From IMG/VR virus record IMGVR_UViG_2917881069_000006: 41,465 nucleotides of DNA; one strand, written 5' to 3'. Under the pieces are notes generated by a model. That model was not told the DNA's origin, ran no database searches, and saw only the letters and a list, made by a program, of their open reading frames with translations. Below, piece by piece: positions 25,778-26,645 of the stretch. Source of the stretch: a virus (Duplodnaviria > Heunggongvirae > Uroviricota > Caudoviricetes). The translations under genes and the position numbers were made by a program. Positions within the stretch are counted from its first letter, which is position 1. Every line of letters begins with the position of its first letter.

Positions 25778-25948
25778 ATGTCAGAACGTAAAGACTCAAA
25801 ATCACGCCGTAATTATCTCGTAAAATGTTCCTGCCCAAACTGTACCCAAGAATCAGAACACAGTTTTTCTAGAGTACAAAAAGGTGCCCTTTTGATCTGC
25901 CCTCATTGCAACAAAGTATTCCAAACAAATCTTAAAGCTGTTGCCTGA
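25778..25948 (+). CDS. small zinc-ribbon protein (CxCPxC...CPxC), 56 aa
   Basis: ATG at 25778 with RBS AGGAAA 7 nt upstream; MSERKDSKSRRNYLVKCSCPNCTQESEHSFSRVQKGALLICPHCNKVFQTNLKAVA; below the 60-aa ORF-track cutoff; convergent with csp. Confidence 0.5.
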   Translation: MSERKDSKSRRNYLVKCSCPNCTQESEHSFSRVQKGALLICPHCNKVFQTNLKAVA

Positions 25949-26004
25949 GTGTTTTGATTACTTACAAAGAGTTTTTATATTTTAATAATATATTTAAATC
26001 AGAT

Positions 26005-26030
26005 AATAAAAAACCCGCCTGCGCGGGTTT
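26005..26030 (-). terminator. intrinsic terminator downstream of csp (shared stem-loop with convergent zinc-ribbon gene)
   Basis: Stem AAACCCGC-ctgc-GCGGGTTT at 26011-26030; on the minus strand it is followed by TTTTTTATTATC. Confidence 0.6.
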
Positions 26031-26229
26031 GAGATTGTGATGCTTTTTGTGGTAGTTACCCACTTACGCACTTTGTATTGCTATGCCAGCAGTTAGCTTC
26101 TACTGTAAAACTATTCATGCAGCAAACCTGCACTTCACCACAAAATGGGATTCAATACCCACAACTCTATCTGCATCTCTACTCAGGCATCAGCCTTCTT
26201 CGTTATCGTATACAGACAAGCTATGAATT

Positions 26230-26445
26230 TTAATCAGTAATAATGACATTTGCTGCTGCAGGACCTTTAGCACCACTCTCTACAGAGAAGGTAACCTTTT
26301 GGCCTTCAAATAAGGTTCGATAATTATCATTCTGAATTGCAGAAAAATGCACAAACACATCTTTACTACCATCAACAGGAGAAATAAAGCCAAAACCTTT
26401 ATCAGCGTTAAACCATTTTACTAAACCAGTCATTTTATTTGACAT
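26230..26445 (-). CDS. CspA-family cold-shock protein (CspB/CspF-like prophage paralog)
   Basis: 71 aa, [74 protein letters not shown]1/RNP2 motifs (KGFGFI, VFVHF). Confidence 0.9.
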
Positions 26446-26645
26446 TCTACATTCCTTAACTTGAGCCTTTCGGCATAAATGATTTGTATAACAGAAACGA
26501 CTTCATACTTAATTGGAGAGACTCAAAGAAGGAATAAGTGAATAACACCTGAAATGAGAACTGCTTTAGTAAACTACTTCGTATATCGTCTGTTCTTCAA
26601 ACCGACGCAGCCATTAACGCATAGTTGTACACTTGGAAGCAATGT
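26446..26645 (-). promoter_or_regulatory. csp promoter and long 5' UTR with cspA-type GCCGAAAGGC element
   Basis: Candidate -35 TTGCTT (26637-26642) and -10 GTTAAT (26613-26618) with 17-nt spacer; about 160-nt leader containing GCCGAAAGGC (plus 26465-26474) as in the cspA leader. Confidence 0.45.

Follow-up and report, generated by a model that had tools for sequence, protein, structure and literature searches.

Why should a prophage keep a cold-shock gene directly upstream of its lysis genes, what does the small gene facing it encode, and does anything beyond a shared site hold the two together? These questions are raised by a 41,465-nucleotide stretch of viral DNA (the window), all of it a lambda-like prophage whose genes extend from integrase to tail fibres. 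Its cargo unit comprises cspB, a convergent ynfU and the hairpin between them, and lies between two minus-strand genes, the late-gene antiterminator Q and the holin gene S. The upstream boundary is Q (26814-27566), which is of the Qin/ydfT type, matches Pfam Antiterm PF03589 (E 3.6e-53), shows ~90% nucleotide identity to K-12 ydfT and is named "antitermination protein" in RefSeq. The downstream boundary is S (25341-25556), a P21-type holin gene (Pfam Phage_holin_2_1, E 2e-35; RefSeq name "EssD"), and the lysozyme and Rz genes were also matched to their families in Pfam/NCBIfam. An earlier reading of the sequence alone (the sequence-only reading) had placed a CspA-family gene with a cspA-type leader at this site between Q and the lysis genes, together with a convergent 56-aa protein carrying a CxCPxC...CPxC pattern, and the family matches given here and below bear out all three claims.

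The same reading implied that the pairing of a csp gene with a zinc-ribbon gene was new relative to K-12, and here it was mistaken. The Qin prophage of K-12 carries ynfU (b4776) convergent with cspB (b1557) between essQ and ydfT, and its full arrangement, essQ-ynfU-cspB-cspF-ynfS-ydfT/quuQ, agrees with the window in order, orientations, Q type and holin type, at 90-96% nucleotide identity and with the same terminator hairpin and cspB leader. The window differs from Qin in lacking cspF-ynfS (571 bp; junction 26665/26669) and 82 nt of the cspB 3'UTR that include a hairpin (26144-26148), and it is an apparently complete lambda-like prophage, whereas Qin is decayed. As a single piece at ≥99% identity, the cspF-ynfS deletion junction occurs in only four complete E. 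coli genomes. Most of the length of the 1261-bp module is found in at least 1604 of 5426 complete E. coli genomes, and the module is also present in the isolated phages 2H10, PhiR63_1, HannyBb, Tritos and PhiR42_1; in strain SF-468, which is 99.7% identical, RefSeq annotates both cspB and ynfU. Because the pair is already annotated in Qin, finding it here is ordinary: the locus is known, and its re-discovery adds nothing by itself.

The unit at this site can be compared with the "morons" of lambdoid phages, such as stx in Stx phages and nmpC/ipeX in DLP12, which occupy the same insertion site between Q/tR' and S, just past tR'. Such morons have their own promoter and terminator and are also read through by Q-modified polymerase, and the unit in the window likewise lies between Q/tR' and the lysis genes and contains promoter-like and terminator sequences. 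Stx2c phages and phage Ayreon share the Q-tR' segment with the window and carry different cargo at the same site, so the cassette is dispensable in relatives. With the DLP12 quuD-nmpC-essD region, no sequence similarity to the module was found. The region is thus very probably a self-contained cargo cassette of a lambda-like prophage, and the same cassette as that of Qin.

The cold-shock gene itself (26230-26445, minus strand) encodes a 71-aa RNA chaperone of the cold-shock domain family (Pfam CSD, E 1e-31; NCBIfam CspA subfamily, 143 bits against a cutoff of 130) with both RNP1 (KGFGFI) and RNP2 (VFVHF), as in the cspA group. The protein shares 70 of 71 residues with K-12 CspB and corresponds to RefSeq WP_000066486.1, "CspB". 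Members of the cspA/B/G/I type are recognised by a 5'UTR of some 145-160 nt that contains both cold box and upstream box, and the cspA thermosensor mRNA (RF01766), cspB, cspG and cspI have in common a long leader of ~160 nt with cold box, upstream box GCCGAAAGGC and downstream box. The window has a leader of this kind at 26446-26605, in which the cold box lies close to the 5' end and GCCGAAAGGC, the upstream box, occupies 26474-26465 on the minus strand; the Rfam cspA thermoregulator model RF01766 matches 26214-26606 on that strand over its full length (158 bits, gathering score 78, E 2e-42), with its 3' part aligning poorly and the cspB 3'UTR lying outside its cover. A putative promoter at 26611-26655, read from the sequence by analogy with the cspA promoter, comprises an AT-rich upstream element, a -35 TTGCTT (26642-26637) and, after a TG, a -10 GTTAAT (26618-26613). 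The cspF-ynfS deletion junction falls just upstream of this promoter and leaves it intact. Transcription would start near 26605, giving the 5'UTR of ~160 nt. K-12 cspB is cold-inducible, with a 160-nt 5'UTR and a cold box (PMC6719143), and a reporter fusion has indicated Rho-dependent termination inside its 5'UTR or ORF (PMC7815308). As promoter, leader and coding sequence are 95.6% identical to K-12 at the nucleotide level, we infer that this cspB allele is also cold-induced.

The gene facing cspB, which RefSeq names ynfU, occupies 25778-25948 on the plus strand and encodes 56 aa with two CPxC knuckles (CSCPNC...CPHC). Its translation matches its own families well above their cutoffs (Pfam YnfU PF23499, E 2.5e-31, 107.7 bits against 27; NCBIfam NF038384, 79.8 bits against 36), is identical to K-12 b4776 at 55 of 56 positions and has homologues in 49 protein clusters. 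In an alignment of 24 sequences the core SEHSF...KG and its cysteines are invariant, and C17, C19, P20, C22, C41, P42 and C44 are invariant or nearly so; with a dN/dS of 0.04-0.10 against other genera, the gene is, on this measure, under strong purifying selection. The K-12 protein was the most abundant among newly tagged small proteins detected by Ribo-RET and epitope tagging (bioRxiv 10.1101/511675) and has been recovered by PIRT-seq as well (PMC12350097). An open reading frame so short, and antisense to the late operon, might be taken for a chance occurrence, yet the family matches, the homologous clusters, the low dN/dS with its invariant cysteine and SEHSF core, and the three lines of detection in K-12 leave that reading with practically no probability. 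The sequence-only reading would have given up its case if the small ORF were silent and the csp locus identical to a fully characterised one; in K-12 YnfU is expressed, which goes against the first condition, and the csp locus is ~95% identical to characterised K-12 cspB, as the second supposes.

Upstream of ynfU, an alignment covering 16 genera is conserved only for the ~65-75 nt before the ATG, beyond which the sequences are unrelated. This block (25713-25777, plus strand) contains a putative promoter with a -10-like TAATGT (25745-25750) and the Shine-Dalgarno sequence AGGA (25767-25770). A search of the upstream region for sigma-32, sigma-E, sigma-54 and sigma-28 patterns yielded only GGCCATTTA, which resembles a sigma-32 -10 element and is not accompanied by a convincing -35. 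Taken together, these data make ynfU a genuine convergent gene, kept by selection, that encodes a small zinc-ribbon protein behind a short conserved block of putative promoter and leader sequence of its own.

Zinc binding by YnfU is predicted. The N-terminal ribbon of PhnA/YjdM, PA0128, the DNL finger of Tim15/Zim17 and the zinc domain of PyrI resemble it in having two Cys pairs ~20 residues apart, but none of them reaches family threshold (Zn_Ribbon_YjdM, E 1e-4, is below cutoff), and they do not share the SEHSF...KG core that marks PF23499 / NF038384 as a family of its own. An AlphaFold2 model built on the 24-sequence alignment has a four-strand beta ribbon at low confidence (mean pLDDT 59.8), a ribbon-like topology too uncertain for use; Foldseek found no match to it in the PDB at E ≤0.001, the best being the PyrI zinc domain at E 0.4. 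An hhalign probability of 12%, obtained with an approximate PyrI query sequence, reduces the PyrI link to a generic zinc-ribbon resemblance. Similarly, matches to Tim15 (DNL finger; E 0.0086) and L44e (E 0.03) in a sequence search of the PDB, and the sub-threshold Pfam match that 19 of the 24 members show to part of the terminase gpA ATPase domain, are too weak for function transfer. On these comparisons, no function is transferable to YnfU from the small zinc-ribbon domains.

The two genes converge on a GC-rich hairpin at 26011-26030, found by terminator scanning and folding, 62 nt past the ynfU stop and 200 nt past the cspB stop. A stem-loop terminator shared by the pair had been proposed from the sequence, and this is correct as far as the hairpin is concerned, which folds stably in either direction (-13.8 kcal/mol on the minus and -15.7 on the plus strand; z ~-3.6), but a good U-tract follows it on the cspB strand only. 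There, an 8-bp GC-rich stem precedes six U (UUUUUUAUUAU), while the tract on the ynfU side is weak, just UUUGAGAUU. A shared terminator is therefore plausible but asymmetric, probably strong for cspB and weaker for ynfU, and because of the weak tract the ynfU transcript may end elsewhere or read on into the antisense of the cspB 3'UTR. Loci of Escherichia, Citrobacter and Klebsiella retain the hairpin together with the A-run and T-run on its flanks. Terminator-like sites are frequent in this part of the window, with seven in 25300-27000 against 1.4 ± 1.4 in shuffled sequence. Just downstream of Q, at 26684-26709 on the minus strand, lies a tR'-like intrinsic terminator with an 11-bp stem followed by UUUUUGUGUUUU (-17.4 kcal/mol, z -4.3), bidirectional in shape. 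Ayreon and Stx2c phages, whose Q is of the same type, conserve the segment from the Q 3' end through this second hairpin, and a terminator is annotated at the homologous position in Ayreon.

The sequence-only reading asked whether the hairpin between the genes blocks Q-modified transcription, and it could be imagined as a barrier that limits or gates the late operon, being a strong intrinsic terminator, with its GC-rich stem and U-tract, on the late-transcript strand. Q-modified polymerase is, however, resistant to intrinsic terminators; on the cspB strand the hairpin is followed by S, R, Rz and all morphogenesis genes, no strong sigma-70-type promoter was found for that strand in the Q-to-lysis interval, and isolated phages carry the same hairpin. 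Lying beyond the hairpin with no such promoter found, the genes for lysis and morphogenesis apparently rely on read-through, and a role for the hairpin as a barrier is highly improbable. In a SELEX study, RpoD was found to bind in the K-12 spacer at a site attributed to essQ, which qualifies the read-through dependence of the lysis genes.

From established knowledge of the cspA family and of lambdoid late control, the following order of events can be proposed. In the lysogen, where Q is absent, late-promoter transcripts would stop at tR' (26684-26709). After a shift to cold, the cspB leader would refold, the mRNA would be stabilised and translated, and CspB would act as an RNA chaperone, while the end of the cspB transcript at 26011-26030 would spare the lethal holin and lysozyme genes cold-induced transcription. 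From the opposite side, ynfU would be transcribed toward the same hairpin with no need for Q. In the lytic cycle, Q-modified RNA polymerase would ignore both terminators, cross cspB, run antisense over ynfU and continue into S, R, Rz and the head and tail genes, allowing their expression.

Between the cspB stop and its terminator lies a 3'UTR of ~200 nt, not covered by the cspA model RF01766. It contains a hairpin and a four-helix element, both of them conserved RNA structures with covariation. The hairpin (26167-26219, minus strand) directly follows the stop codon and was delineated with RNAalifold on 20 sequences from several genera, in which 12 of its 16 pairs still pair despite changes on both sides; it is also present in the single-sequence minimum-energy fold. 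Its outer stem is variable and covarying, while the internal loops CGAUAACGAWGA / CCUGAGUAGA are conserved, with invariant core bases. The four-helix element (26032-26145, minus strand) consists of a closing stem, GUGGUG/CAUCAC, and three hairpins; 95% of its cells are paired and 8 of 22 pairs have changed on both sides, values reached by none of 500 shuffles, with slid controls at 19-64% paired. A covariance model of this element (R1) scores 125 bits in the window and matches 24 of 80 species loci, on the csp strand every time.

The conservation between cspB and ynfU need not belong to the cspB mRNA, and it could instead mark a separate gene for a small RNA, the 3'UTR of ynfU on the antisense strand or a site acting at the DNA level. 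The region is conserved as DNA, either strand could fold in principle (the antisense is still 89.4% paired), and SELEX studies report that RNA polymerase holoenzyme and H-NS bind at some point within the spacer between essQ and cspB of K-12. Yet the sense strand of the four-helix element is 95.0% paired and folds at -70 against -50 kcal/mol, and the 30 G-U cells against 4 A-C cells likewise favour the cspB strand. In addition, in a Yokenella locus (L077) the element follows csp and not ynfU, the hairpin motif stands after the csp stop in all gene arrangements seen, and compensatory changes point to RNA pairing instead of a DNA site. An origin outside the cspB mRNA is consequently improbable, while a small RNA processed from the cspB 3'UTR is compatible with the main explanation, the cargo cassette. 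The conserved RNA structures also enclose plus-strand ORFs of 31-51 aa (26078-26240). An ORF of 12-14 codons overlapping the four-helix element (MSVLTDVMKCRSAA-like) was rejected, as its start codon is missing in several genera and in the window. Rfam contained nothing at gathering score in 24000-29000 of the window except the cspA leader, and with the K-12 cspB 3'UTR alone, searched up to E 10, the best match was terminator-driven at 22.5 bits against 51. A literature search for a small RNA or a ProQ/Hfq target at the cspB 3'UTR returned nothing specific. Kinship with the DLP12 quuD-nmpC-essD region, the reported location of the IpeX small RNA, was also considered, and no similarity to the 3'UTR element was found.

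Whether csp and ynfU belong together can be judged from other genera. In 57 of 80 species-representative Enterobacteriaceae genomes, ynfU and a csp gene are no more than 1.3 kb apart (in 39 of them convergent), and in the other 23 no csp gene is nearby; lysis or Q genes are recognisable near only 11 ynfU loci. Genome content makes chance an unlikely source of such adjacency, as an estimate of about nine csp genes per 5-Mb genome gives an expectation below 1%. The pair occurs in at least four arrangements, convergent, tandem and divergent, with or without a cspF-like gene, and the csp gene next to ynfU has a cspA leader in 15 of 18 loci tested. The surroundings vary widely, with 579 flanking ORFs falling into 361 clusters, including an SDR gene and LysR/acetolactate decarboxylase genes in Raoultella, arsB and GmrSD in Citrobacter, and EAL, SRAP and response-regulator genes in Enterobacter. 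Still, the adjacency may carry no functional meaning, the pair having been captured as one block and hitch-hiking since, not yet separated. All ynfU homologues found come from one bacterial family, the Enterobacteriaceae, and shared ancestry could for this reason explain part of the linkage; moreover, the loci with ynfU and no csp nearby fit such a history, and the sole paper naming both cspB and ynfU merely lists an intergenic polymorphism. Against this stand the adjacency in 57 of 80 species despite unrelated flanks, its survival through the different arrangements and the low chance expectation, so that hitch-hiking alone is a rather unlikely account, though one to be taken seriously.

A bolder reading, at somewhat less than even probability, is that cspB, its structured 3'UTR and ynfU are one conserved three-part cold-shock cassette of the Enterobacteriaceae, merely picked up by Qin-type phages. 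The hairpin and the four-helix element would then be an undescribed RNA family that controls csp mRNA stability or processing or yields a 3'UTR-derived small RNA, with YnfU as the protein that partners it or as another component of the cold response. The persistence of ynfU next to cspA-type csp genes from genus to genus makes it probable that YnfU works in that cold or RNA-metabolism setting as well, although this is speculative, as is the possibility that its basic N-terminus and zinc ribbon serve to bind RNA or a partner protein.

The suggestion in the sequence-only reading that the pairing deserves a look thus has a modest pay-off, and the pairing proves conserved well beyond this prophage; the new leads, themselves modest, are the cspB 3'UTR structures and the csp-ynfU linkage. 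For the prophage, the layout shows how a strongly inducible host-type gene can be held directly upstream of the lysis genes without death of the lysogen. For YnfU, adjacency to cspA-type genes provides a concrete, testable context in cold shock and RNA metabolism. Cold-shock research has so far focused on the 5'UTR thermosensor, and a conserved, covarying 3'UTR of ~200 nt with a near-invariant internal-loop motif in the cspB clade suggests an unstudied layer of control, which may operate through mRNA decay, through a site for protein binding or through a small RNA derived from the 3'UTR.

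The window is filled by a lambda-like prophage on the minus strand, whose genes run from right to left as integrase, exo/bet/gam, repressor, replication, nin, Q, lysis, terminase, head, tail and tail fibres. A prophage of E. coli SF-468 matches it at 94-98% identity, in blocks. Two early-region stretches (29169-32772 and 35291-36516), within which a 466-aa ORF falls (29939-31339, minus strand), have no colinear counterpart in this otherwise closely matching prophage and point to a mosaic replacement of early genes. The placement of the csp gene between Q and the lysis genes, proposed in the sequence-only reading, is confirmed, as the pair is flanked by the Q antiterminator gene (26814-27566, minus strand; Pfam Antiterm, E 4e-53) and a P21-type holin gene (25556-25341, minus strand), the latter followed by lysozyme and Rz. 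Between them, the minus strand carries a tR'-like terminator (26709-26684), a cspA-like promoter, a cspB 5'UTR of ~160 nt, cspB itself (26445-26230) and a cspB 3'UTR of ~200 nt, and a GC-rich hairpin (26030-26011) separates cspB from the 56-aa ynfU ORF (25778-25948, plus strand), which converges on it with its two CPxC knuckles as described. Besides its Antiterm domain, the Q protein displays a DnaJ-like CxxCxGxG cysteine-rich segment, matching Pfam DnaJ_CXXCXGXG slightly under the cutoff (E 4e-7).

The assignment of a cspA-type leader likewise stands. The Rfam cspA thermoregulator model gives a full-length match at 26214-26606 (minus strand) with 158 bits (gathering score 78), the GCCGAAAGGC motif is located at 26465-26474, and CspB has both RNP1 and RNP2 as well as a CSD family match (E 1e-31). 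In the literature, cspB counts among the cold-inducible csp genes, its 5'UTR measuring 160 nt and including a cold box (PMC6719143), and a reporter fusion has indicated Rho-dependent termination inside its 5'UTR or ORF (PMC7815308). Terminator-like sites are enriched, with 7 observed versus 1.4 +/- 1.4 in shuffles. The hairpin at 26011-26030, proposed as a terminator shared by both genes, folds stably on either strand, yet a good U-tract follows on the cspB strand only, so that a shared terminator is plausible but would be weaker for ynfU.

The claim that the csp and zinc-ribbon pairing is new was wrong, because the locus is the annotated cspB-ynfU module of Qin, a cryptic prophage of E. coli K-12 MG1655, and the finding as first stated is thus already known. 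In Qin, the order is essQ, ynfU (b4776, plus strand), cspB (b1557, minus strand), cspF (plus), ynfS (plus) and ydfT/Q (minus), i.e., the arrangement of the window plus cspF-ynfS, and RefSeq names the two genes 'cspB' and 'ynfU: putative zinc-binding protein YnfU'. The proteins are identical at 70 of 71 (CspB) and 55 of 56 (YnfU) residues, while DNA identity is 90.7% for the stretch from holin through ynfU to the 3'UTR, 95.6% for cspB and its leader, and 90.4% for Q. When 25560-26820 was compared by megablast with 5426 complete E. coli genomes, at least 1604 had most of the module, and the module is also carried by the isolated phages 2H10, PhiR63_1, HannyBb, Tritos and PhiR42_1 (6 records, 5 phages). 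The window copy is therefore the K-12 module in an intact-looking prophage, minus cspF-ynfS. This 571-bp segment is cleanly absent at a junction (26665/26669) lying shortly before the cspB promoter, so that the tR'-like terminator is joined ~20 nt upstream of that promoter (26665-26669 versus 5775-6345 in L003, the K-12 locus). At >=99% identity, a one-piece match to this junction occurs in only 4 complete E. coli genomes; the locus of Escherichia sp. E1V33 (L007) is identical. The window also lacks 82 nt of the K-12 cspB 3'UTR. An additional hairpin (GGYCAGCATATTT...RTRTGCTGRCC), present here in K-12 (L003 5172-5258) and in most other genera, is missing from the window (26144-26148); in K-12 it holds a tiny ORF, MKQWLAYLAKS, with a strong AAGGAGG Shine-Dalgarno ahead of it.

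Phages with the same Q type and different downstream cargo (Stx2c phages, Ayreon) share the segment that extends from the 3' end of Q to the hairpin at 26684-26709, and the Ayreon record has a terminator annotated at the homologous place. By analogy with Stx phages, this fits a unit of late promoter and tR' with cargo inserted right after tR'. In a lysogen, late-promoter transcripts would end at tR', while upon a cold shift cspB would fire from its own promoter and its transcript end at 26030-26011, so that this very strong, cold-induced transcript would not reach the genes for holin and lysozyme. On the opposite side, a short conserved promoter and leader would drive ynfU transcription toward this hairpin. 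It had been suggested that this hairpin may block Q-modified transcription. This is unlikely, as the lysis and structural genes lie downstream, and Q-modified polymerase would have to read through both hairpins during lytic growth; scanning the interval for a strong sigma-70-type promoter on the lysis-gene strand found none, although a SELEX study does attribute an RpoD-bound site in the K-12 spacer to essQ. With such read-through, late transcription would also yield cspB mRNA and antisense RNA across ynfU.

YnfU forms families of its own (Pfam PF23499 and NCBIfam NF038384). It was found via Ribo-RET by Weaver et al., for whom tagged YnfU was the most abundant of the new small proteins and who remarked on its two zinc knuckles and Qin location (bioRxiv 10.1101/511675), and it was recovered again by PIRT-seq (PMC12350097). 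A dN/dS of 0.04-0.10 shows strong purifying selection. Homology-based attempts to assign a function failed: the AlphaFold2 model is of low confidence (pLDDT 59.8), the fold search gave no significant match, and sequence similarity to other zinc ribbons (PhnA/YjdM, Tim15, PyrI, L44e) stayed under the family threshold in every case. In 19 of 24 members, residues 5-53 show sub-threshold similarity (best E 2.4e-5) to part of the phage terminase gpA ATPase-domain profile (positions 186-238), a hint at a possible origin of the zinc ribbon in a terminase insert. Across 16 genera, upstream conservation spans only ~65-75 nt before the ATG. The block at 25713-25777 (plus strand) contains GAGCTATTT at the expected -35 position, unlike TTGACA, and GGCCATTTA, which resembles a sigma-32 -10 element. 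For the K-12 essQ-cspB spacer, genomic SELEX papers reported binding of H-NS as well as holoenzyme peaks for RpoD, RpoH and RpoE, and these peaks were given to essQ before the ynfU annotation existed. Directly after the ynfU stop, a conserved inverted repeat (TTGCCAAATGA...TCATTTGGCAA) is seen in loci of Enterobacter, Kluyvera and Leclercia (L044, L052, L058, L068, L071, L081) and is absent from the Escherichia version.

Scanning one genome per species gave 80 ynfU loci, which belong to Enterobacteriaceae, including Escherichia, Shigella, Citrobacter, Klebsiella, Raoultella, Enterobacter, Kosakonia, Kluyvera, Yokenella, Atlantibacter and Salmonella, save a few oddly labelled records. The latter (L005, L027, L041, L043), assigned to Veillonella parvula (MAG), Vagococcus, Kocuria and Bacillota (MAG), most likely represent enterobacterial contamination rather than true occurrences outside the family, and in two cases the contig is very short. 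A csp gene lies within 1.3 kb of ynfU in 57 of the 80 loci, 39 showing the convergent arrangement of the window, often with a cspF-like gene beyond, and others with csp upstream, in tandem or divergent; a cspA-type leader precedes the adjacent csp gene in 15 of 18 loci tested. Homologues of holin, lysozyme or Q could be recognised within 4 kb at only 11 of the 80 loci. The flanking ORFs are highly diverse (579 ORFs in 361 clusters), with chromosomal neighbours including SDR, LysR/acetolactate decarboxylase, arsB, GmrSD, EAL, SRAP and response-regulator genes. Because the linkage persists across genera with such diverse flanks, the csp-ynfU pair is a small cassette, older and wider than Qin-type phages.

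The cspB 3'UTR is conserved at the nucleotide level across genera and contains two RNA structures. The first, a hairpin after the stop codon (~26219-26167, minus strand), has conserved internal loops (CGAUAACGAWGA / CCUGAGUAGA) with invariant core bases, resembling a k-turn or loop-E type protein-binding motif, while its outer stem varies freely with pairing kept (both-side changes in 12 of 16 pairs, 20 sequences); it comes after the csp stop in all gene arrangements seen, tandem and divergent included. The second, a four-helix element (26145-26032, minus strand), comprises three hairpins enclosed by a closing stem, with 95% of cells paired and both-side changes in 8 of 22 pairs (21 distinct sequences); none of 500 shuffles reached the observed values, and slid controls gave 19-64% pairing. 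Viral-contig variants added compensatory changes in all four helices, and these contigs nearly always place the element between csp and ynfU. Among the 80 species loci, a covariance model of the element gave matches in 24, each time on the csp strand, and in Yokenella the element follows csp, not ynfU. The cspB-sense strand is favoured (30 G-U versus 4 A-C cells; -70 versus -50 kcal/mol). Rfam 15 has no family matching either structure, and literature searches found no description of them. Derived from the same sequences used to assess them, which are related and offer few independent substitution events, both are good candidates, short of established families.

As originally given, the cspB-ynfU finding is of low interest, with the observation and identification right. 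The conserved linkage suggests, without proving, that YnfU is functionally tied to the cold-shock response, and together with the two 3'UTR structures it provides modest leads that merit a targeted experiment.
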